UHGV virus genome: UHGV-0367640
Length of the DNA: 26,496 bases
Reading direction: 5' to 3' (one strand)
From: a virus
The notes below the pieces were generated by a model. The model saw nothing but the letters and a program-made list of their open reading frames with translations. It was not told the origin of the DNA and searched no databases. Below are positions 804-26,290 of the stretch, piece after piece. A program made the translations under genes and the position numbers. Position 1 is the stretch's first letter. Every line of letters begins with the position of its first letter.

Positions 804-2003
804 ATGGTCGTGAGCGTTTTTATGTTTGACTTGACGTTTATTATCTTTATTTTATCTTCCATCCCTGTATTTTTTGTTTTTTGGATTGCCGGAAGGTTTA
901 AGAATGAATTAGTTGCAGACTCTTCTTTTGGATTGCGAGGTGATGACAATTTATCTTGCCTCAGGGGGTTGGCGGCTGTCATGGTCGCCCTTCACCATTC
1001 AGTATATATGTTCAATTATCTTTATCATGATAAATGGAGTATATTTTTGAATGATGGATTTGCGGCGAAGTCAAGCAACAATAGTTTATTGGCCATTGCA
1101 TATTTTGGCTCCATTCCAGTCATGATATTCTTTATGATTACAGGGTTTCTCTTCTTTAGAAAAATAATAAACAAACCAATAAACAATGCTGCAATATTTT
1201 TGTCGGCGCGAGTTAAGAGACTAATTCCAATGTATGCATTCATGGTGCTTTGCGTTGTTTGTGTTTCTGAATTAATTCGACCCAACGATAGCATTGGGAT
1301 TCACAACATTATTGTTGAAGTTGGCCGATATTTTACGTTTGGTATAATTGACCCTAATGGCCTTACACCTTCTATTCATGGATCTTTAATCGTTGGCGGG
1401 GTTATCTGGACTCTTGCATATGAGTGGGGTTTTTATATAATTTTACCATATATCTCTATGTTCGTAAAATCAATAAGAGATGCATGTTTTTCGGTAATAA
1501 TTATGCTTTTCTCGGTATTAATTGCTTACCGCCAAGAGCTTATCAGTGAAATGTTTGCCACTCTTCTCTTTTGCTTTATTGGTGGCTTTGTTGCAGCGCT
1601 AGCTTCTGGTTACCTAAAGAACAACGCTATCAAACAAGCCAATAGCGTAATGATGACAATTGTGTACCTTTTATCGCTTATTGCTGTCGCATACTGGCAG
1701 GACTTTAACATTTACAATGTTTACATAGTGATTCCGCTATTTTTGTTTTTTTTAAGTGCGTGTACTGGCTCCAAAGCTTTTCAAATTATAAACACCAAGT
1801 TCTTCAAGGTGGCGGGTTCTGTAAGTTACAGCATTTATTTGATGCATGGCTTAAGCATGGTAATGACCTTTAATTTCATTTCAAGCTCATTAAACTATAC
1901 TGAGTTTGCAGCAATATCTTTATCAATTTGTGCAATGATAAGTTGCTTAACTTACTTATACATTGAAAAACCCGCAATGAAAAAACAGTTTAAAAACAAT
2001 TAG
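804..2003 (+). CDS. Integral-membrane acyltransferase, acyltransferase-3 family (O-antigen/LPS O-acetyltransferase-like lysogenic conversion gene)
   Basis: 399-aa very hydrophobic multi-pass ORF with an N-proximal LRG-LAAVMVALHH motif typical of acyltransferase-3 enzymes; AT-rich by eye; convergent with the tail fiber assembly gene. Start uncertain: ATG 804 or ATG 822, no clear SD; a TATAAT at about 793-798 would favour a downstream start. Confidence 0.7.
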   Translation: MVVSVFMFDLTFIIFILSSIPVFFVFWIAGRFKNELVADSSFGLRGDDNLSCLRGLAAVMVALHHSVYMFNYLYHDKWSIFLNDGFAAKSSNNSLLAIAYFGSIPVMIFFMITGFLFFRKIINKPINNAAIFLSARVKRLIPMYAFMVLCVVCVSELIRPNDSIGIHNIIVEVGRYFTFGIIDPNGLTPSIHGSLIVGGVIWTLAYEWGFYIILPYISMFVKSIRDACFSVIIMLFSVLIAYRQELISEMFATLLFCFIGGFVAALASGYLKNNAIKQANSVMMTIVYLLSLIAVAYWQDFNIYNVYIVIPLFLFFLSACTGSKAFQIINTKFFKVAGSVSYSIYLMHGLSMVMTFNFISSSLNYTEFAAISLSICAMISCLTYLYIEKPAMKKQFKNN

Positions 2004-3855: not shown

Positions 3856-5051
3856 GACTCCACCGTTATAACGATATTTTCCGGTGTACAGGACGCAGAT
3901 TCGTTGTATCTGATATCAATGTTTGATGACGACAAAGCCCCCGGGGATTTCCCAATCGTCAGTTCCTGAATATCGTAATAGCGTGCATTCCCGCCACTCA
4001 CCACGCCAAGATTCGCCGGTGAGTAAATGCGACTTAAAAGGACCGAATCACCAATCATCAGACTATTGATATAGTCGGAAATAGCCTGCTGGATCTGCTG
4101 CCCTATCTGTGAGGTATAACCCGTAAAAACTTTTAATTTAATCCGGGCATAAACAGGCACATCACTAGAGCGCGAGAATTTGATTACATGGGGATTGCCG
4201 TATTTATCCGGAACCGTAACGGATGTTGTACCGTGAGTGGATGTCCCCTGGCCTTTATTCCCTCTGATAGCCTGAGCAATATCCGTCACATCACCGCCAT
4301 CCACAATTACAGCAACAGAGTGTGGCGGTAACCCGTTACCGTCCTCCGAACCAGTATCGTTTTCATAGAGTTTGTGGCGGGTTACACCGGCAACATTAGA
4401 AACAGCACCATCCAGTGCTTCAAATGGGGTTATTGATGGCAACGCAACACTTTGCGACTGACGGATACGTAACTCCGCATCAGTTTCTGCCGGAGTGCCC
4501 ACAGTGGCTGCAGCAGGATTGGTTACCGAAACCCAGCCACGGGTTGGTGTATTAATTTCAGTGATAGTTCCAGCCAGCGCCGCCACTGCACCACTGACGG
4601 AACATATTGCGGTCACCATCACTGTACCATCCACGCCGACCACCACTGAAGCAGGCAAACGCCATATCACATTATTACTGTCTTTCACGCTGCCATTAAT
4701 GATGGTTGTTCCGGCAGTTCCTGTAAGAAGCAAATCAACCGTAGAGTTCGTCGCGCCTTTACGTGAAATACCATTTATTTTCACGTTACTGGTCAGTGCA
4801 ACCCCATAGCCGGTTGCCGGTGAAAAACAGTTGTAGACAGTTATCGCCATATTATTGGCATCATGAATCGCCAGCGCCATCAGAGCCACCATCTGGCCGT
4901 CTTTGCTGTCCGGTTCGAGGTAGGCATCACTGCCATAAATCTGCTGAAAATAGCTAATCAGGGTGCTGAGTATCGTCTGATAATCAGGCGCACCGATCCC
5001 CTCCGCGGTTACCTTTGCAGATAAACCGAGAGAATCAAGGTTCAGAGCCAT
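3852..5051 (-). CDS. Baseplate J-like protein (Mu gp47 / P2 gpJ family)
   Basis: 399-aa ORF, size and position typical of baseplate wedge J-like proteins; translationally coupled to neighbours. Confidence 0.65.
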   Translation of the reverse strand: MALNLDSLGLSAKVTAEGIGAPDYQTILSTLISYFQQIYGSDAYLEPDSKDGQMVALMALAIHDANNMAITVYNCFSPATGYGVALTSNVKINGISRKGATNSTVDLLLTGTAGTTIINGSVKDSNNVIWRLPASVVVGVDGTVMVTAICSVSGAVAALAGTITEINTPTRGWVSVTNPAAATVGTPAETDAELRIRQSQSVALPSITPFEALDGAVSNVAGVTRHKLYENDTGSEDGNGLPPHSVAVIVDGGDVTDIAQAIRGNKGQGTSTHGTTSVTVPDKYGNPHVIKFSRSSDVPVYARIKLKVFTGYTSQIGQQIQQAISDYINSLMIGDSVLLSRIYSPANLGVVSGGNARYYDIQELTIGKSPGALSSSNIDIRYNESASCTPENIVITVES

Positions 5052-5404
5052 TACGCCTCCGATGTAACAGTCGTTATTCCATAGAGAGTGTCGATTTCAG
5101 CGGAAAACATGACACGTCGGGTCGTGGTATCCACCGTCGTATTGAAAGAGAGGATTGATTTAACGCCCCGCGTTTCGAGGATGCGCTTACGGACGGCCAG
5201 GTTGTAGGTTTCCGGCTTCTGCTTACCGAGTACGGACTGGATCCACGGAGTCCCCTCGGTGGTGTCGAGAAACCATTGCCCATACCACAATTCGAATCGC
5301 GTTTTTACCGCCTGTGCCACGGCATCCGGTGAGTTAATCAGCCAGGTGTCATCACCGCTGCCAAAGGTGTAATCGCCATCGGCGTCTTCACGTCTGTATC
5401 GCAT
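5051..5404 (-). CDS. Small baseplate protein (Mu gp46 / gpW-gp25-like)
   Basis: 117-aa ORF between spike-like and J-like genes; ATGA/TAATG coupling. Confidence 0.5.
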   Translation of the reverse strand: MRYRREDADGDYTFGSGDDTWLINSPDAVAQAVKTRFELWYGQWFLDTTEGTPWIQSVLGKQKPETYNLAVRKRILETRGVKSILSFNTTVDTTTRRVMFSAEIDTLYGITTVTSEA

Positions 5405-6174: not shown

Positions 6175-6204
6175 CAAAAAACCCGCCGAATGGCGGGTTT
6201 TGTT
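6175..6204. terminator. Rho-independent terminator (bidirectional)
   Basis: AAAAA-AACCCGCC-GAAT-GGCGGGTT-TTTGTT: perfect 8-bp GC-rich stem, 4-nt loop, A-run and T-run flanks; 17 nt downstream of the stop of the 131-aa gene. Confidence 0.7.
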
Positions 6205-6220
6205 AATTCACTGAATGAGT

Positions 6221-6616
6221 TTAAACAGCTTCATCAGTCTTCATTTTTTCCCACTGAGAAAAAATAGTCTTAACCTCTAAGAGAGATTGCTGTGCCATTG
6301 CTTTATCTATTGCACAGCTAGTGAGGTCATAATCTGCTTCATTTCGAGCCAGTCTCTGTTGCTCAAGTTTGTAAGCCATGGATTTTAGGCTTAATGGATC
6401 ATATGGCTCCAGTTTGTTTTCACTCTTATTTTTAAGATAAGAGATAAGACTGGAATGATGATCCTTCGTATAAGCAGGAAGACTGGTCAGATTCTCTTTT
6501 ATTTCATGGTAAAGCGCATAATATGCCCGCGAAATAGTATTACGATAACCAACTTCAGAATCCTCCGCAAAGCAACGCTCCGCTGAAGATAAAAACTCAG
6601 AGCTAGTTATAGGCAT
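6221..6616 (-). CDS. Small HEPN-like protein (putative toxin/RNase-fold component of an accessory cassette)
   Basis: 131-aa ORF, ATG 6616 with AAAGGGTG RBS about 5 nt upstream; overlaps the upstream gene by 14 nt; N-terminal ...ISRAYYALYHEI... resembles the conserved helix of classical HEPN domains and fits Rx6H; AT-rich by eye. Fold assignment is by motif only. Confidence 0.45.
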   Translation of the reverse strand: MPITSSEFLSSAERCFAEDSEVGYRNTISRAYYALYHEIKENLTSLPAYTKDHHSSLISYLKNKSENKLEPYDPLSLKSMAYKLEQQRLARNEADYDLTSCAIDKAMAQQSLLEVKTIFSQWEKMKTDEAV

Positions 6617-7373
6617 ATTTACACCCTTTCAAGCTATTTCTTTCAACGGAAAAACGTGCAATAAGATTGCAATCATCAAGTAAATCGATTGAACAAATTT
6701 CATCTGCAAGTCGCATATTCATTGCAACCACCTGTTCAGGGGATGCATTAACTACCTCAACCAGATAAGTCCCACCAGATGCACCGTTGATGTCAGCACG
6801 ATATTCAGTTGGAGGGAATTCAGCCATGACTCTATGAACAGCAAGAGCAACTTGCATGTATTGTTCTGAAGAGCATCCTGACTTTTTGTATGCTTCATCC
6901 ATATCGTGAATTACCTCCTGCAAGAAGGCTTCTGCGTCATCCCTATGTTCTTCTTGGGATAACATTTTGCAATGACGTCCAAAATATTCTACGCATTTTG
7001 ATAGTTTCCCTACCAAATACGCAACGCCACCAGCCCTATAAGTAAACCACTTGGTTGGATACTTATCAGCTAAAGAATAGATGTAGTAGTCCGATTTTTC
7101 GAGTAGAGAAAAACGCTCAAGCAGCTTACAAAAAATCCGCGCAAAGTTAACATCAGCATGTGGGAGGATAGCTTCAAGCATTTCAATCCCGACACTCACA
7201 TCACCTTTAGCAATATGAGCCAAAGCTACAAGCGTGTCAGCAGGCGGAGTACGCTTAGAGCCATACTCCGAGACCACCTCTCGAAAGGTCCAAATATCAA
7301 GAGGTTGACCACTATTGATTATCTTAACCAACTGGTCAAAACGCTCTTCCGCTTTCAGTTTTGGTCTTGCCAC
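6603..7373 (-). CDS. Hypothetical protein, first gene of the accessory two-gene operon
   Basis: 256-aa ORF, apparent GTG start at 7373 about 23 nt downstream of a predicted sigma70 promoter; no motif recognised; AT-rich. Confidence 0.55.
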   Translation of the reverse strand: MARPKLKAEERFDQLVKIINSGQPLDIWTFREVVSEYGSKRTPPADTLVALAHIAKGDVSVGIEMLEAILPHADVNFARIFCKLLERFSLLEKSDYYIYSLADKYPTKWFTYRAGGVAYLVGKLSKCVEYFGRHCKMLSQEEHRDDAEAFLQEVIHDMDEAYKKSGCSSEQYMQVALAVHRVMAEFPPTEYRADINGASGGTYLVEVVNASPEQVVAMNMRLADEICSIDLLDDCNLIARFSVERNSLKGCKYAYN

Positions 7374-7402
7374 AGTACGCTCGCTACTTATCTTTTGGTT
7401 GA

Positions 7403-7432
7403 ATTTTATGTTCGCGTATACAGTTTAGTCAA
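7403..7432 (-). promoter_or_regulatory. Sigma70-like promoter for the two-gene cassette
   Basis: On the minus strand TTGACT (7432..7427), 18-bp spacer, TAAAAT (7408..7403), about 30 nt upstream of GTG 7373, in the only sizeable intergenic gap of the tail module. Confidence 0.45.
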
Positions 7433-7464
7433 TCCGAAGCTCGTGCTGTTGAGCCGTTTCGCAC

Positions 7465-7488
7465 AAAATCATCCTTGCAAAAAGGATG
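7465..7488 (-). terminator. Weak hairpin plus T-run after the secreted-protein gene
   Basis: Minus strand CATCCTT-tttgc-AAGGATG followed by ATTTTG, immediately after the stop at 7494. Confidence 0.3.
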
Positions 7489-7493
7489 GGACT

Positions 7494-7835
7494 TCAACCA
7501 TCAACCTTTTTACACGGGAAAGATCCGATGATTTTCGGTGCATCCATGCTGTTCTGCAGAAGCTGGACGTTCAGGAAACGCGTTTCGGTGCCAGGGCGAC
7601 GAATGTATTCAAAGCCATAATTGTTGCCATCTTTAGCAGGCATAAGCCCCATATCAATCTTAATGCCATCAGCACCAAGATTTGTAATTTTCTGCGATGT
7701 GACGCGTTCACCGTTAATCATGTCCATTTCACCCAACCTTGCAGTGATGGTGTAAGGCCCACAATAAGCGGTGTACCCGCTTGCTGATGCCCCAAATGAC
7801 ATAAAGGCAACAATTAAAATGGCTAAGGCTTTCAA
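7494..7835 (-). CDS. Small secreted (signal-peptide) protein of unknown function
   Basis: 113 aa; N-terminus MKALAILIVAFMSFGASA|SGYT is a type-I signal peptide; two Cys in the mature part; TTG start at 7835 with GGGGG about 5 nt upstream, no in-frame ATG before an upstream stop; 2 nt after the hub gene stop. Confidence 0.5.
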   Translation of the reverse strand: MKALAILIVAFMSFGASASGYTAYCGPYTITARLGEMDMINGERVTSQKITNLGADGIKIDMGLMPAKDGNNYGFEYIRRPGTETRFLNVQLLQNSMDAPKIIGSFPCKKVDG

Positions 7836-7837
7836 AT

Positions 7838-8899
7838 TTACCCCCGATTAAGCGAGTCCTGAGTGCGGAGATCCGCCGCGCCACGCGCTTCGCACATCAT
7901 ATCCATGTACCACGCCTGGCCCCTTGTATCGCCAGTGTACATAATCCCGCGCACAATATAAACGCCATCCGTTGCGATGCTGGCAGGTTGTGCTGTGGTG
8001 CCGCTTAGCGTGATATTTCCGTCCGTGTTCTGGTCGGTGATCTGACCACCAGCCATCGCAATATCGTTGTTCGACAACGCGGTACGATAGACGGAAGCCT
8101 GATCCAGCTGAATGAGCCCGTTAACCCGGATGTTCGGATTAATAAGAGCGCGGACGTTTACGCCGTTGCCGATGGTCTGCTGCGGCATGCCGATAAGCCC
8201 GGTGGCGCTGCTGAGCACAATCGCGTCGTGAACATACTCGTTATTCGCCACCATCTGGCGCTGACCGTCCACAAATTGCCATGTTGCGCCACATTGTCCG
8301 GCCACGTTATCCATAAGATGCCGTGTCATGCCGAACAGCACCCGCCCTCGAGGGAATACGGTAGCAGGCATTTCAGGCGTCAGTCCTTCGGTCGCGCCTT
8401 TGGCCTCAAAGTCTTTCATCAGCGCACGGTTCACATCTGCGACCGTGTAACCGGCCGCCAGCGTCTGCGAGGTTATACTGGTGGCAAATGCCAGATCCGT
8501 ATCTGCTGCCTGAATCAGGACATAGGAATCAATAGGGCTGTCTTTTCCTGTGACCGAGTAGCGAATTTCTCCGCTGAAAATCAACCCGTAGTTGCGGCCA
8601 TCACTCTGGCCCACATCTGCCGCGTCGACTTCGCGCACGGTCACGACGTCGCTTGCCGCCACCTCCGGCGCGATACCGTCGTAACCGGCAATCAGCCGCA
8701 CTTTCGAAAACTCCTGCCCGGTAATTCGGTTCACAGTATCTGCCGAGAGGTTATAAATTTTGATAGTTCCTACCCGGGACGCGCTGCTGATGTTGAACCA
8801 GTCGATCGTAAAGGTGACTTTGAAATCACTTAGCTCAATTCCCTGACCGTTCCCGTCCACAAGCTGCAGCTCGAAATGTCTCATCCAGTTCTGTGACAT
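7838..8899 (-). CDS. Baseplate hub / late-control-D-like tail protein (Mu gp44-like position)
   Basis: 353-aa ORF, ATG 8899 with GGAG 5-6 nt upstream; product by position and size. Confidence 0.5.
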   Translation of the reverse strand: MSQNWMRHFELQLVDGNGQGIELSDFKVTFTIDWFNISSASRVGTIKIYNLSADTVNRITGQEFSKVRLIAGYDGIAPEVAASDVVTVREVDAADVGQSDGRNYGLIFSGEIRYSVTGKDSPIDSYVLIQAADTDLAFATSITSQTLAAGYTVADVNRALMKDFEAKGATEGLTPEMPATVFPRGRVLFGMTRHLMDNVAGQCGATWQFVDGQRQMVANNEYVHDAIVLSSATGLIGMPQQTIGNGVNVRALINPNIRVNGLIQLDQASVYRTALSNNDIAMAGGQITDQNTDGNITLSGTTAQPASIATDGVYIVRGIMYTGDTRGQAWYMDMMCEARGAADLRTQDSLNRG

Positions 8900-9204: not shown

Positions 9205-9791
9205 TAGCCGCCTCCCAGTAATGACGCCACGTTACCCGTAATGCTTTTCAGCAGTGAAGTATCTGGAGGCTTTGTGGTTTTGTTGCCGCTGTTCTGTACC
9301 GCCGACGTGCTGGCCCCTTCCTTCATGTTGGTTTTATCCGCGACGGTAATCTGCTGTGTCCGGGAGATAATGACCTCCCTCAGGGTGAGGACGGCGGACA
9401 GGACGTTTTCGGTTGTCTTGTCCGTCGTCACTTCCAGCGCCCGGATCAACATGTTGCTGTACAGCCGTTTACCGGTTACCACATCGAAGGGGATACGGCT
9501 TTCCTGCAGATCCAGTAGCTCCTGATACGTCTGCTGAGGACTCAGGCCGAGCAGGCTGGTAGCCGTCAGATTACTGGCAAAATCCAGCAATGCGCCGCCA
9601 CCGGCGAAACCAACCTCCATCACCACTTCTGACGGTTTTTTATAGGCATGATCAGCGACAGCGGCCCCGACCTCTACCGGATGCTCTGTTATTTCAAGCA
9701 TATCTGTATGCTTCTCTGAAATAACAACACTGGGAACAATCATTCCTATTTTTCTGCTCTGCTGATGAAAAAGTGTAGAGAGAATATCCAC
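9204..9791 (-). CDS. Tail protein downstream of tape measure
   Basis: 195-aa ORF with GTG start overlapping the tape measure TAG stop by 1 nt. Confidence 0.45.
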   Translation of the reverse strand: MDILSTLFHQQSRKIGMIVPSVVISEKHTDMLEITEHPVEVGAAVADHAYKKPSEVVMEVGFAGGGALLDFASNLTATSLLGLSPQQTYQELLDLQESRIPFDVVTGKRLYSNMLIRALEVTTDKTTENVLSAVLTLREVIISRTQQITVADKTNMKEGASTSAVQNSGNKTTKPPDTSLLKSITGNVASLLGGG

Positions 9792-11779
9792 TAACCCACC
9801 CTCACCTGATTACTTCGCATGACCTGAGCATTTGCAGACTGTTGCCGACGTGCAACCTCATTACCGACAGCGTGCGGATCTCCGCCACCGTAAATGTGGT
9901 AAGTATTTTGCTGGTTAACCTCTGTCATTTTGCCACTAATTCCCGCCACGGCAGCCTTATTAATCAGCTCTCGAGAATAGATATTTCTTCCATTTTCATG
10001 CTGGATAATGCTGCTCATCAATGCTGACATGGTTTGCGGATCGCTCATATTCAGGGCAGCCCGGGGATCCACTCCCAGTCGTTGCGATACAGCCCTGATA
10101 TACGCAGTTGTGTTGTTATTATCAGACGCAGGTGCCCAGGTAGAGATAATTTTCTCCACACTGTTTATTCCCCGTCCGGCGTACAGCATTAACTGACGAG
10201 CAAGAGCCCGTAATCCATCAAAAGCAGTTTCAAATCTGGCAAATCGCCCGCCCGGGCGTTCAAGAGAAGCCCCTGCCTGACCAGCAAAATTAAGGTTTCC
10301 CGGATTGTTATTCCGTTCTCCTCGTTTCGTAGCCTGTGCATATTGTTCCTGCTCATCATCACCAAACCAGCCGCGTACCGTCCGGCCCACACTGCGGGGA
10401 TCGAATCCCCAGTGCTCTTTAATCCAGTCGGCAGTACTGTTAGCGCTGTCTGTAACCATCGGCATCGCTGACGGATTTTCGCTGCCCTGATTAAGTATCT
10501 GTTTGCCGATGCTGACGGCATCAGCCCAGCGGCCATCTTTGATAGCGTTGAGCAGGTCGGCGATCATGTTCAGCATTTTGCTGAATTCGCCCATCTGGTC
10601 GATGAAGTTGCTGAAATCCCACTTCAGGGACCATGATTTGGGGTCAATATTGAGCAGTTTCGCCAGCGCTTTCACCAGTTCATTAACAGACCCTTTCAGG
10701 TCACGAACCATCTTCAGCGCGGCATCGACCTCCGGCTTCCACTTGCCCCAGTCAATCAGGCTGTCGCCGCCTTCCTTCCAGGTCTGATAGTCCTCCCACA
10801 GAAGGGCAATCCCCGCCGCCAGCGCGGTAATGAGGCCAATCGGCGACATCCAGAACGTACTGTTCAGAATGCGCAGCGCAATCGTCAGCGCGCCAAACAG
10901 CGAGATGAGCTCCCGCGTTTGCTTATCCAGCGATTGCCACCAGGTGATAAGGCTGGATGTTCCCTCAATTAGCCTGAAGAACAGCCGCCCGATGATGTCT
11001 CCGAGCGCCAGAATGCCTTTTATGGCTTTCGTCAGGGTCTGCTCGATGCGCGGGAAGTTATCGAGGATGTGGCGGCGCAGTGTGTCCAGCGAACCCGCCA
11101 GACCACCAGCAAGATTAGAGCCGATTTTGTCACGGGCCATGCCTGCCATCGCGCCGAACTCGCGCAGGGAGGTCATGAATTTGTTGGAGCTTCTGGCCGC
11201 CTCGTCAGCATTGAAGCCGATAGCTTTCGCCATTGCGCTGTACTGCCCGGAGAAATCACCCACACCCCGGCGCATCGCCATGAGGGTATTTTCGTCAATG
11301 CCCAGCATCTGCGCATACTGGTTAGCCCGGTAATACGGCATGCTGCTGAGCTTCTGTCCGACACCCGTAAAAATAGCGGCCATGTCGCGCATGTTGCCGC
11401 TGGCGTCACGGGTCTGTACGCCCAGGCGATTCAGAAAGCCTTCTGCACCGGGATTGTTACGAATAAACCGGGAGAGGCTTTCCAGAGAAGATCGCGCAGC
11501 GTCCACGCTGCCGCCAACCTGCGAAACCGCATAGCCAATAGACTGAATCCCCTGAACCGTCGCGCCGGTGCGCTGTGACGCCCAGTAGAGATTATCCAGA
11601 CCGGAGGCGATCTTGGCCGTGAAGGCCACCACGGACAGCGCAGCTCCTTCAACAGCCAGCCCCATTTTGATGACATTTGCAGTTGTACCGGCGAGGACAG
11701 AACCGAATTTTTTCGCGCCTGCATCATCCACACTGAAGCCAAGCGAGACAAGGAAATCTTTAATAGTTTCAGCGTTCAT
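9791..11779 (-). CDS. Tail tape measure protein
   Basis: Long Ala/Gly-rich ORF with membrane-like central segment, directly after the tail chaperone; start refined to ATG 11779 (GGAGAGAGG 3 nt upstream) rather than 11800. Confidence 0.8.
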   Translation of the reverse strand: MNAETIKDFLVSLGFSVDDAGAKKFGSVLAGTTANVIKMGLAVEGAALSVVAFTAKIASGLDNLYWASQRTGATVQGIQSIGYAVSQVGGSVDAARSSLESLSRFIRNNPGAEGFLNRLGVQTRDASGNMRDMAAIFTGVGQKLSSMPYYRANQYAQMLGIDENTLMAMRRGVGDFSGQYSAMAKAIGFNADEAARSSNKFMTSLREFGAMAGMARDKIGSNLAGGLAGSLDTLRRHILDNFPRIEQTLTKAIKGILALGDIIGRLFFRLIEGTSSLITWWQSLDKQTRELISLFGALTIALRILNSTFWMSPIGLITALAAGIALLWEDYQTWKEGGDSLIDWGKWKPEVDAALKMVRDLKGSVNELVKALAKLLNIDPKSWSLKWDFSNFIDQMGEFSKMLNMIADLLNAIKDGRWADAVSIGKQILNQGSENPSAMPMVTDSANSTADWIKEHWGFDPRSVGRTVRGWFGDDEQEQYAQATKRGERNNNPGNLNFAGQAGASLERPGGRFARFETAFDGLRALARQLMLYAGRGINSVEKIISTWAPASDNNNTTAYIRAVSQRLGVDPRAALNMSDPQTMSALMSSIIQHENGRNIYSRELINKAAVAGISGKMTEVNQQNTYHIYGGGDPHAVGNEVARRQQSANAQVMRSNQVRVG

Positions 11780-12011
11780 TATCCTCTCTCCATTTCTCAA
11801 TGCGCCGCTGGTTATCCGCTTTTACCGCCAGATGGTCATTCAAGAGAGCAATGTCATACAAATCGACAGAGCCATCTTTAAGTGCTGTATAAGGAATTAA
11901 CCCGGCGTCAACCGGATTGAGAAGGTAGGACAGCCCGTCCGGCAGGCTGTTAAACGTCAGCCCTGTTGCAGGCTCTGCGTCGTGCTGGTAAGGGGTGTAG
12001 GCAAAAAATTT
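11769..12011 (-). other. Programmed -1 frameshift extension of the tail assembly chaperone (G/GT-type)
   Basis: Slippery heptamer A_AAT_TTT in the zero frame at 12011..12005; the -1 frame stays open for about 78 codons and ends at TGA 11771..11769, overlapping the tape measure start. Confidence 0.6.
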
Positions 12012-24212: not shown

Positions 24213-24701
24213 TTAATAGCCATCAGAAGTAATCGCTACAGATTTCAATCCCTCAATGTCATCCTTGGACAGGGCGAACCATTCACCGTGCTTTCTCTTT
24301 GCGGCAAATTTGCGATGAAGCATGTTTTCAGTTTCTCTTCCACCAGGGATCAGGCACTCAAGCTTCAAGCAGTCTGGTCCAGAGTTGCCAAGCGATTTGA
24401 TGCGTTGTGGAATGTTGGATGAATACCCAATTTTGGTTAGCCCAGTTTTCTTCGATGACAAAACGTATACCTGAGGAGGTTCTTTTCTCTGGTCTTCCAT
24501 TACACGTCTCATTGTTGCCATAAGTCCGCCGTGCATCAGCATTTCAACAAAGAACGCTGACCGAACACCTGACGACTTAAGCATGCCAGAAAATTCACTT
24601 GCCAATTCCATTAACTCTGCGATGTTTTCAGGAACTTTTTGGCAGTTATCTTCCTTGTATAAGGAAATCATTCTTTGAAGCTTTTCTTCTAATTGGTTCA
24701 T
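24213..24701 (-). CDS. T5orf172-domain protein (GIY-YIG-like superfamily)
   Basis: C-terminal half VYVLSSKKTGLTKIGYSSNIPQRIKSL...HGEWFAL matches the T5orf172 signature; start placed at internal ATG 24701 (AAAGG RBS about 10 nt upstream) rather than 24857 of the ORF track. Confidence 0.6.
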   Translation of the reverse strand: MNQLEEKLQRMISLYKEDNCQKVPENIAELMELASEFSGMLKSSGVRSAFFVEMLMHGGLMATMRRVMEDQRKEPPQVYVLSSKKTGLTKIGYSSNIPQRIKSLGNSGPDCLKLECLIPGGRETENMLHRKFAAKRKHGEWFALSKDDIEGLKSVAITSDGY

Positions 24702-25042
24702 AGCGTCTTTACCTTTTAGAAAGTGAGCCTGTCTCACAGAAAAGCCGCCCGAGAGAGGTTGCCACCTATAACGGCATTTCTCAGGCTCACTTACTGAAAG
24801 GCTCTCGTTAATATGCGCGTGAGATGCGCGGTTTACTGCAGATGTAAAAAGCCCCACAAATGCGAGGCTAAATCCTGGTATTTGTAATGACTGGCTCTTA
24901 TCTCAACGCGGCCCCTTACCGCGCGCCAGATGCTCAATCTCAAGCATCAGCAATGAGATGTTTAATCTGGATTCACTCCAGAAGTGATCACCACCCTGTC
25001 TACAGAGCCAGATGTGAAGGATGATGAGTAAAATTATCGCTA

Positions 25043-25510
25043 TCATCGAAGGCATTGCGTCCTGATGTATTCCTGAAGCGTTCTCAGTGCTGTTTGGTCG
25101 CGGATAATTCCGTCCCGGACACCGAGAACGTTTCGTCCAGCAACTGGAGAGAGTTCGACGGTGGCATCATTGCCCATGCCGGAGGCGCTGGAGGCTTCGG
25201 CTGAGGATGGCACAGGGCATTTTCCTTTGACGAACACCCGACCACCATTATCAAGCTTGCGCCGAAGAGCATCATTTTCAGCTTTCGCATCAGCTAACTC
25301 CTTCGTGTATTTAGCATCGAGTGCATCAGCAGAACGCTGGCGCTGCTGCATGTCAGTAATGGTGGCGGTCGCCTGCTTCAGCTCACTGACTTTTTTATCG
25401 CGCTGCTCTTTGTAGGCGATGGCGTTATCACGGTAATGATTAACAGCCCATGACAGGCAGACGATGATGCAGATAACCAGAGCGGAGATAATCGCGGTTA
25501 CTCTGCTCAT
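25043..25510 (-). CDS. Rz: i-spanin Rz
   Basis: 155-aa ORF with N-terminal TM segment, closely resembles lambda Rz; ATGA overlap with R. Confidence 0.85.
25084..25290 (-). CDS. Rz1: o-spanin Rz1 (lipoprotein, embedded in the +1 frame of Rz)
   Basis: 68-aa ORF wholly inside Rz; [19 protein letters not shown] lipobox followed by Pro-rich [11 protein letters not shown], as in lambda Rz1. Confidence 0.8.
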
Positions 25511-25983
25511 GCCTCAATCTCTCTGACCGTTCCGCCTACTTCTTTGAATTTTGCAATCAGGCTGTCAGCCTTATGCTCGAACTGACCATAACCAGCCCCC
25601 GGCAGTGAAGCCCAGATATTGCTGCAACGGTCGATTGCCTGACGGATATCACCGCGATCAATCATCGGTAAAGCGCCACGCTCTTTAATCTGCTGCAGTG
25701 CAACAGCGTCCTGGCTTTTCGGAGAGAAGTCTTTCAGGCCAAGCTGCTTACGATAGGCATCCCACCAACGGGAAAGAAGCTGGTAACGTCCGGCTGCTGT
25801 TGATTTGAGTTTTGGGTTTAGCGTGACAAGTTTGCGAGGGTGATCGGAGTAATCAGTGAATAGCTCTCCGCCAACAATGACGTCATAACCATGATTTCTG
25901 GTTTTCTGCCGTCCGTTATCAGTTCCCTCTGACCACGCCAGCATATCGAGGAACGCCTTACGTTGATTATTGATTTCCACCAT
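25507..25983 (-). CDS. R: Endolysin R (lambda-type lytic transglycosylase)
   Basis: 158-aa protein matching lambda R nearly residue for residue as I recall it ([24 protein letters not shown]...). Confidence 0.9.
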
Positions 25984-26290
25984 CTTCTACTCCGGCTTTT
26001 TTAGCAGCGAAGCGTTTGATAAGCGAACCAATCGTGTCAGTACCGATGTAGCCGATGAACACGCTCGTTATATAAGCGAGATTGCTACTTAGTCCGGCGA
26101 AGTCGAGAAGGTCACGAATGAACCAGGCGATAATGGCGCACATCGTTGCGTCGATTACTGTTTTTGTAAACGCACCGCCATTATATCTGCCGCGAAGGTA
26201 CGCCATTGCAAACGCAAGGATTGCCCCGATGCCTTGTTCCTTTGCCGCGAGAATGGCGGCTAACAGGTCATGTTTTTCTGGCATCTCCAT
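25967..26290 (-). CDS. S: Holin S (lambda class I holin, dual-start)
   Basis: 107-aa protein near-identical to lambda S as recalled; two in-frame ATGs (Met1 at 26290, Met3 at 26284); the upstream leader matches the lambda late leader. Confidence 0.9.

Follow-up and report, generated by a model that had tools for sequence, protein, structure and literature searches.

Phage T4 makes Spackle (Sp), a periplasmic inhibitor of the gp5 tail lysozyme. Other phages encode envelope proteins that act on superinfection: the exclusion protein gp15 of HK97 is the product of a moron (Cumby et al. 2012; PMC3594210), and the outer-membrane lipoproteins Cor (phages phi80, N15 and T1) and Llp (T5) block FhuA (PMC3594210). 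Here we describe a gene on the minus strand of a 26,496-nucleotide (nt) stretch of viral DNA, UHGV virus genome UHGV-0367640, the whole of which we call the window. The gene occupies positions 7494..7835 and encodes a 113-residue exported protein, which we call X. X is a member of family phrog_3443 and belongs with the exported accessory products encoded within the tail gene blocks of temperate phages. Our best overall explanation, which we regard as reasonably probable, is that a gene with a TTG start is read together with the baseplate hub gene and yields an exported periplasmic barrel that is no part of the baseplate and is bound to one slot in the genome, with a block to phage entry as the favoured mechanism.

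Each of the described systems resembles X in some respects and departs from it in others. HK97 gp15 is likewise a small envelope-targeted protein encoded by extra DNA within a tail operon, and both proteins have homologues among non-prophage chromosomal genes (YebO for gp15, a Mixta gene for X). However, gp15 is an inner-membrane protein expressed in the prophage from its own promoter, whereas X is a predicted soluble periplasmic barrel whose gene is adjacent to the hub and promoterless, and the two share no sequence similarity. Spackle, which provides the model for the mechanism we favour, is a small Sec-exported periplasmic protein made during infection, as X would be, but it is helical, non-homologous and the product of an early gene of a lytic phage, and we purely infer that X might bind a lysin. 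Cor and Llp are exported, are encoded beside tail genes and protect against superinfection; two relatives of the present system, a 241-residue variant found in the same slot and a 292-residue Serratia fusion of X, are lipoproteins as well, but X itself has a type I signal peptide and no lipobox, and has no homology to Cor or Llp. With regard to inhibitors of lysozyme and other peptidoglycan hydrolases (PliC, MliC and PhiA), X gave no sequence-profile match to MliC or PliC, and its likeness to avidin/streptavidin-like barrels is one of fold only (7–9% identity and no match to Pfam avidin). Spackle, gp15 and Cor/Llp protect against incoming phages by other means.

The gene after the baseplate hub and its product

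The window corresponds to the late part of a myovirus prophage that is lambdoid and SEN34-like (Brunovirus-type). Its genes run in the order tape measure, Dit-like protein, plug, hub, X, a cassette, spike, sheath initiator, baseplate J, wedge and fibre, and the closest relative in complete Escherichia coli genomes is the argW/intS prophage of the enteropathogenic strain E2348/69 (97.6% over 4.3 kilobases). The hub gene (7838..8899, minus strand) was identified by its match to phrog_196, baseplate hub (E = 2.3e-88), and also has a weak match to Pfam E217_GP41. It ends with TAA at 7838-7840, which is followed by AT at 7836-7837 and then by the TTG start codon of X at 7833..7835, leaving a gap of 2 nt; the stop codon of X lies at 7494-7496. 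A GGGGG Shine-Dalgarno motif at 7841..7845 lies within the 3'-terminal part of the hub gene and precedes the TTG by 5 nt, and the location of the hub stop between this motif and the start codon suggests translational coupling of X to the hub. The TTG is the first possible start 3' of an in-frame TAA at 7848-7850: the codons in between are TCG, GGG, GTA and AAT, none of them a start. Not until codon 12 is there an in-frame ATG; it falls within the hydrophobic core, and initiation there would delete that core. An earlier note, made from the letters of this DNA alone, had proposed a TTG start 2 nt past the hub stop without an earlier in-frame ATG, preceded at about 5 nt by a GGGGG Shine-Dalgarno motif, and our reading of the minus strand agrees with it on both counts. 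No sigma-70-like site was found 5' of X on the minus strand between 7836 and 9000 by a consensus scan, which weak promoters could escape.

The starts of homologues align with this codon, which is TTG in the window, SEN34 and two further loci (L007 and L014), GTG in E2348/69, L006 and Mulock, and ATG in other alleles; among 14 viral contigs that carry the window allele, six have TTG and eight GTG. The arrangement of Shine-Dalgarno motif, hub stop and start seen in the window recurs in SEN34, E2348/69, L006, L007 and L014. Annotation pipelines sometimes truncate X by missing the TTG or GTG start. The NCBI pipeline called the full 342-nt coding sequence (CDS) of the homologue in E. coli E2348/69, and in SEN34 (L001, NC_028699.1, locus 5001-5342) the gene SEN34_20 is a 234-nt CDS that begins at Met37 and omits the TTG start together with the entire signal peptide. 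A similarly short call of 234 nt, named 'putative exported protein', is present in Klebsiella phage ST340-VIM1phi10.1.

Judged by its conservation, X is a real gene and not a chance open reading frame (ORF). It lies far beyond chance because it matches phrog_3443, has 393 homologous protein clusters, shows nonsynonymous divergence (pN) far below synonymous divergence (pS), and shares aligned starts and a conserved signal architecture with its relatives. The homology search that the earlier note had suggested returned a full-length match to the phrog_3443 profile (E = 2.5e-46; residues 2-112 on positions 2-114 of 115) and no baseplate or tail-assembly homologue. Members of this uncharacterised family include proteins that NCBI names 'STY1065/STY2022 family phage-derived protein'. 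One bearer of that name, from E. coli TUM1880, is 71% identical to X and is likewise encoded directly after the hub; even this protein has no hidden Markov model (HMM) match in NCBIfam release 20, so its name does not stem from an HMM there. The 393 clusters, drawn from a large protein collection at E ≤ 1e-3, are nearly all 106-115 residues long and, where they are named at all, are called 'hypothetical', 'putative exported' or 'secreted'. In an exhaustive profile search of 1.84 billion cluster representatives only 39 matched at E ≤ 0.001, and the X family is therefore narrow and enterobacterial. A Pfam scan of 30 family members gave no family at E ≤ 1 beyond scattered chance hits. Four giant Thr/Ser/Gly-rich repeat proteins (P0125, P0133, P0144 and P0153; 1205-5298 residues) scored on the X profile through 4-19 short stretches each and were rejected as compositional artefacts.

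All pairwise codon comparisons gave pN far below pS, and the ratio of nonsynonymous to synonymous substitution rates (dN/dS) within allele classes was about 0.04-0.1. By these measures X is under strong purifying selection, with the signal region evolving fastest and residues 62-113 slowest, and no diversifying selection was found in the same comparisons.

Codons 1-18 (7782..7835; MKALAILIVAFMSFGASA) encode a predicted signal peptide with Lys2, a 10-residue core with a mean Kyte-Doolittle hydropathy of 3.09, and A-S-A at positions 16-18. Cleavage is expected between ASA and SG: the translation reads (M)KALAILIVAFMSFGASA up to this site and SGYTAYCGPY... after it, and no lipobox precedes Cys25. 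The same architecture of n-region, hydrophobic core and small-x-small site was kept in 25 of 25 diverse members despite sequence divergence. Each has Lys or Arg within the first six residues, a 10-residue core whose hydropathy on the Kyte-Doolittle scale averages 2.2-3.1, a small-x-small site near positions 16-25 and its first conserved Cys 2-9 residues further on. Since the leader sequences of these 25 members are nearly unrelated to each other while their architecture is constant, they behave as cleaved signal peptides do. The classical signal peptide with ASA-SG cleavage that had been predicted for X is borne out by the rule features and by their conservation in all 25 members, and on this evidence X is a Sec signal peptidase I type exported protein of predicted periplasmic location. 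In a Serratia lineage, the X domain forms the C-terminus of a 292-residue protein with a lipobox (LSGC), which is also encoded directly after the hub.

The mature domain (residues 19-113; 7497..7781, minus strand) is predicted to be an eight-stranded up-and-down beta-barrel. An AlphaFold2 model from 30 sequences reached a predicted local distance difference test score (pLDDT) of 86.4, mostly above 90 in the mature part, and a predicted template modelling score (pTM) of 0.72; it comprises a leader helix followed by seven long strands and a short split one. The first model, from 19 close sequences, had a pLDDT of 70, which rose to 86 when distant members were added. Structure prediction, another step suggested beforehand, gave a modelled barrel and no significant known relative: Foldseek returned nothing significant for X either in the PDB (with the earlier, lower-confidence model) or among viral models, and PDB sequences searched with a profile contained no relative. 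Only Cys25 (codon at 7761..7763), Leu88 and Cys108 (codon at 7512..7514) are invariant among 29-30 diverse members reaching down to 24% identity, the two cysteines being invariant across the family in alignments A3 and A4. Column entropy on the predicted elements divides the loops into a conserved set (1, 3, 5 and 7; 0.65-1.45 bits) and a variable set (2, 4 and 6; 1.95-2.52 bits). The stretches MPAKDGNNYGF and QNSMDAPK belong to the conserved loops. In an up-and-down barrel such alternation places the conserved loops at one barrel end, as deduced from strand order and not from coordinates, and in the model this conserved end suggests a binding face.

A slot for exported proteins and an adjacent exchangeable cassette

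We surveyed 80 IMG/VR viral contigs (L039-L118) whose hub is at least 96% identical to that of the window, and all 80 encode an exported protein directly after the hub. The occupant of this slot is an X allele in 69 contigs (six leader and N-terminal types, one copy being frameshifted), a signal-peptide protein of about 155 residues in six (MGIRLNKKAIFIAISLLVPMSGLA, then AP... after the cleavage site) and a 241-residue lipoprotein in five (MSRLAITTIVFSLFLTSC...), in which case the spike follows within 44 nt. Profile comparison found no significant similarity between X and either alternative, and neither alternative matched Pfam, NCBIfam or a PHROG family of known function; the lipoprotein alone had a weak match to phrog_3727, a PHROG without known function. 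Its motif LNLQLVNTS..DCKRI resembles LNVQLLQNS..PCKKV of X, with an hhalign probability below 1%. Relative to the hub stop, X alleles start at -4 to +3 nt and the alternatives at -10 to +2 nt. X homologues sit directly downstream of a hub, the exceptions being the Mixta chromosomal copies and one prophage remnant. The remnant, in Pantoea stewartii (L023, NZ_CP046558.1), joins the 3' two-thirds of X to an unrelated N-terminus (MSQSFIRLSEVQRRTGYSKATL...) and has no hub upstream and a spike-like gene just downstream. The hub-spike slot of SEN34-like (Brunovirus-type) enterobacterial prophages is dedicated to exported proteins.

The gene for X stands among the baseplate genes, is probably translated together with the hub and keeps its position across enterobacterial relatives, as would be the case for a protein of the virion, the baseplate or tail assembly in which the hydrophobic N-terminus were something other than a signal peptide. 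We consider such a role most improbable. Among six distantly related phages that keep the same baseplate gene order, five have the spike directly after the hub and no counterpart of X: Bordetella IFTN9, Acinetobacter AbTJ, Ralstonia PY059YO380, the lytic Salmonella phage yarpen, and Pam3, whose record names every baseplate protein. The sixth, Burkholderia vB_E192a, has a single gene on the opposite strand between hub and spike. Where the hub is at least 96% identical, proteins without detectable similarity can take the place of X; its alleles show no co-variation with the hub, the spike or the tape measure; and X bears a classical cleavage site as well as two invariant Cys residues. The guanine-cytosine (GC) content of X is 45.6% (46.5% at third codon positions, GC3) versus 55.5% (GC3 64.1%) in the hub and 52-55.5% (GC3 59-64%) in the upstream tail genes. 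We regard X as an add-on because it is absent from five of the six relatives, is replaceable at near-identical hubs and drops in GC; on these comparisons it has been added to the baseplate block as a non-structural accessory gene and is not a baseplate part. The same absence, replacement by unlike exported proteins and GC drop support the exported, non-virion accessory reading given in the earlier note, and homology to baseplate or tail-assembly proteins, which would have spoken for the opposite, was looked for and not found.

X had also been called a periplasmic moron product. Morons in the Juhala/Hendrix sense, as summarised in PMC3594210, are recognised by extra DNA relative to related phages, deviant base composition, a promoter and a terminator of their own, and expression from the repressed prophage. 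X is extra DNA (hub then spike in five of six relatives), differs in composition from the hub and is, by prediction, exported, and in these respects the name fits; it lacks its own promoter and lies tight against the hub gene, however, and so is not a textbook moron.

Beyond the stop codon of X lies a second tier of cargo that is not part of X, a cassette at 6178..7493 on the minus strand. It consists of a weak hairpin with a T-run (7488..7470; 7 pairs, 3 of them G-C), a promoter-like site TTGACT-18-TAAAAT (7432..7403), an ORF of 256 residues (6603-7373; phrog_17809), an ORF of 131 residues (6221-6616; phrog_5176, with a weak HEPN_IX match at E = 0.009) and a strong terminator (6201..6178). 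The hairpin came from a scan and the promoter-like site and terminator from consensus scans, which returned both the weak hairpin and the cassette promoter that had been noticed after X. In alignments with six related prophages and phages, homology is lost at about 6200 and returns, according to the relative, at 7496-7513, no further than about 17 nt from the stop codon of X; the blastn boundaries in the six loci (7496, 7498, 7503, 7504 and 7513) define a mosaic breakpoint at 7496..7513, at the 3' end of X. Because the breakpoint coincides with the X stop codon, the cassette is a module separate from X. The weak hairpin follows X but falls on the cargo side of the breakpoint. Downstream of the slot, the 80 surveyed contigs carry at least 19 different cargo clusters or none. 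Some phages have X without any cargo, the spike then lying 40-44 nt away, while a single X allele may be accompanied by as many as nine cargo clusters and a single cargo by as many as five X alleles.

X and the cassette are adjacent, and both are lower in GC than the tail genes, as expected had they arrived in the same horizontally acquired insertion (cassette 6221-7373 with its promoter), which is what the earlier note had supposed. We consider this very unlikely, and that part of the note does not survive the breakpoint at the X stop codon, the occurrence of X without the cassette and the free reassortment of alleles and cargo. Moreover, the cassette has a GC content of 38.6-42.3% and a GC3 of 32-35%, below the values for X, and the higher GC of X therefore fits a separate history. 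On these boundaries, the hairpin, the promoter, the 256- and 131-residue ORFs and their DNA are one exchangeable unit, and X is outside it. Annotated examples of cargo at this site include a YafO toxin pair, DUF2335 and DUF4282, and the site looks like a defence or toxin-antitoxin hotspot. The less ordinary part of the arrangement is that a post-hub slot for exported proteins stands beside a second, independently swapping slot that bears a promoter; literature searches, which were narrow, found no description of such a two-slot arrangement.

The alleles of X have a history of their own. In many genomes the hub is 91-96% identical to that of the window and X only 50-69%. Compared with SEN34, X is identical in DNA over codons 1-61 and reaches a pS of 0.43 over codons 62-113; compared with E. 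coli TUM1880, the 3' half encodes a near-identical protein (pN 0.008, pS 0.38) and the 5' half is saturated. As these patterns indicate, the divergence of X reflects allelic lineages of long standing that have been shuffled by recombination within the gene, and is not due to positive selection. Different alleles of X are also combined with tape-measure C-termini, hubs and spikes that are near-identical. Exchange of cargo could use as its homology arms the conserved 3' half of X on one side and the shared terminator (6178-6201) on the other. X-like DNA was found in 290 of 5426 complete E. coli genomes (about 5%), always on the chromosome; the full-length window-type allele is present in 14 of these genomes, and in most of the 290 the first ~117 nt are unaligned. 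Prophages of Klebsiella, Salmonella, Citrobacter, Enterobacter, Serratia and Pantoea carry X widely. Two distant members (24-27% identity; L008 6001-6357 and L031 5001-5327) are ordinary chromosomal, non-prophage genes. These chromosomal homologues lie between cls/yciY and yciI/tonB and keep the signal peptide and both cysteines, and one such cluster is named in Mixta calida records and occurs on 166 contigs, the other being drawn from metagenome assemblies.

Other genes of the window were noted in passing. A 399-residue membrane protein with an Acyl_transf_3 domain is encoded on the opposite strand (804-2003, plus strand), just past the tail fibre assembly gene, and has the look of a conversion gene of the O-antigen acetylase type. 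At the corresponding position a Kosakonia relative (L009) has an acyltransferase-SGNH gene. Between the lysis and terminase genes, a 214-residue ORF (24213-24857, minus strand) contains T5orf172 and MUG113 (GIY-YIG-like) domains. The tape measure (9791-11800, minus strand) has a weak Pfam match to PhageMin_Tail only and none to Pfam SLT, and its C-terminal ~130 residues begin ERNNNPGNLNF....

Proposed role in the cell envelope

We propose that translation of X begins at its TTG, the ribosomes being most probably those that have only just completed the hub, and that X would be made with the late proteins, in the Q-dependent late operon of the phage. The E2348/69 prophage, the closest complete relative, has a Q antiterminator with late genes all on one strand downstream. 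Late expression is proposed because no promoter-like site was seen upstream of X, the gap to the hub is -4 to +3 nt and Q is present in that prophage, and from its coupling to the hub X is probably co-expressed with the late genes. The Sec signal peptide would then be cleaved, leaving a mature eight-stranded barrel of about 95 residues in the periplasm, probably stapled by a Cys25-Cys108 disulfide. There, X would act in the cell envelope, where the conserved end of the barrel may bind a target that is conserved across hosts or phages. By doing so it may block a periplasmic step of phage entry or neutralise the tail-borne cell-wall lysin of incoming phages, and would protect the infected cell, or the lysogen if expression is leaky.

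Our proposal that X stops phage entry in the periplasm or counteracts a tail-borne lysin is a tentative one, to which we give less than even odds. We favour it because tape measures near-identical to that of the window are annotated 'lytic transglycosylase' in E. coli genomes and a Serratia relative has a Pfam SLT domain, because inhibitor and immunity proteins are commonly built on small periplasmic barrels, because exported proteins that lack detectable similarity to one another can stand in for each other in the slot, and because HK97 gp15 offers a precedent for an envelope-acting exclusion gene in a tail operon with chromosomal homologues. Several points weigh against it. X has no promoter of its own while the neighbouring cassette has one, and action in a lysogen would predict a promoter. 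The fold is generic; Pfam, NCBIfam, PADLOC and PDB sequences gave no match for X; and the literature on STY1065, STY2022, SEN34 and exported tail-operon morons gave no functional data for the family. The signal peptide was judged by rules and by conservation across members, and the periplasmic disulfide is presumed from the invariant Cys pair. Finally, a matched phage partner, with X alleles tracking the tape-measure C-terminus or the spike, was considered and rejected for want of co-variation: classes of tape-measure C-terminus or spike at least 95% identical to those of the window occur with nearly every type of slot occupant.

Two other roles outside the virion have to be weighed against an entry or lysin block. 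X could be a host-directed conversion factor, namely a periplasmic binding protein or an envelope-fitness or virulence factor, such as a small-ligand-binding barrel that benefits the lysogen and has no bearing on phage entry. This is unlikely in our view, given a gene without its own promoter set tight against a late structural gene, and a Pfam scan of 30 family members without a match to avidin or lipocalin; the slot is also common to exported proteins unlike X, and so the role appears tied to the phage life cycle. Alternatively, an exported protein that is apparently expressed only with late genes, in an operon that also holds holin, GH24-type endolysin and Rz spanin genes, might be a periplasmic helper of the late lytic cycle, which tunes lysis or cell-wall breakdown or spares the loss of progeny on debris. 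We regard this as quite improbable: X is distant from the lysis cassette (25043-26290), most of the sampled distant relatives, including the lytic yarpen, do without it, and it has no similarity to known antiholins, spanins or lysis regulators.

The entry or lysin block can be extended to the whole hub-spike junction of SEN34-like prophages, which might be a two-tier arms-race locus in which X represents a new, Spackle-like class of anti-entry or anti-lysin beta-barrel, a speculative reading that we think is more probably wrong than right by a good measure. Its first tier would be a late-coupled slot for exported proteins, held by at least three mutually dissimilar families of which X is the main one; its second would be a hotspot for toxin-antitoxin and defence-type cargo with its own promoter. 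In this scheme the conserved 3' half of X and the shared terminator would be the homology arms through which cargo is swapped.

By its sequence features, X is a real, widespread and uncharacterised periplasmic phage protein, and the hub-spike locus is a well-defined place in which to seek new prophage-borne accessory and defence genes. If X does block phage entry in the periplasm, the few exclusion factors that act at this level would be joined by one with a new fold and a new genomic address, a slot for exported proteins tied to the baseplate hub gene, and its effect on phage susceptibility, including susceptibility to therapeutic phages, could be broad given how widely it is spread.

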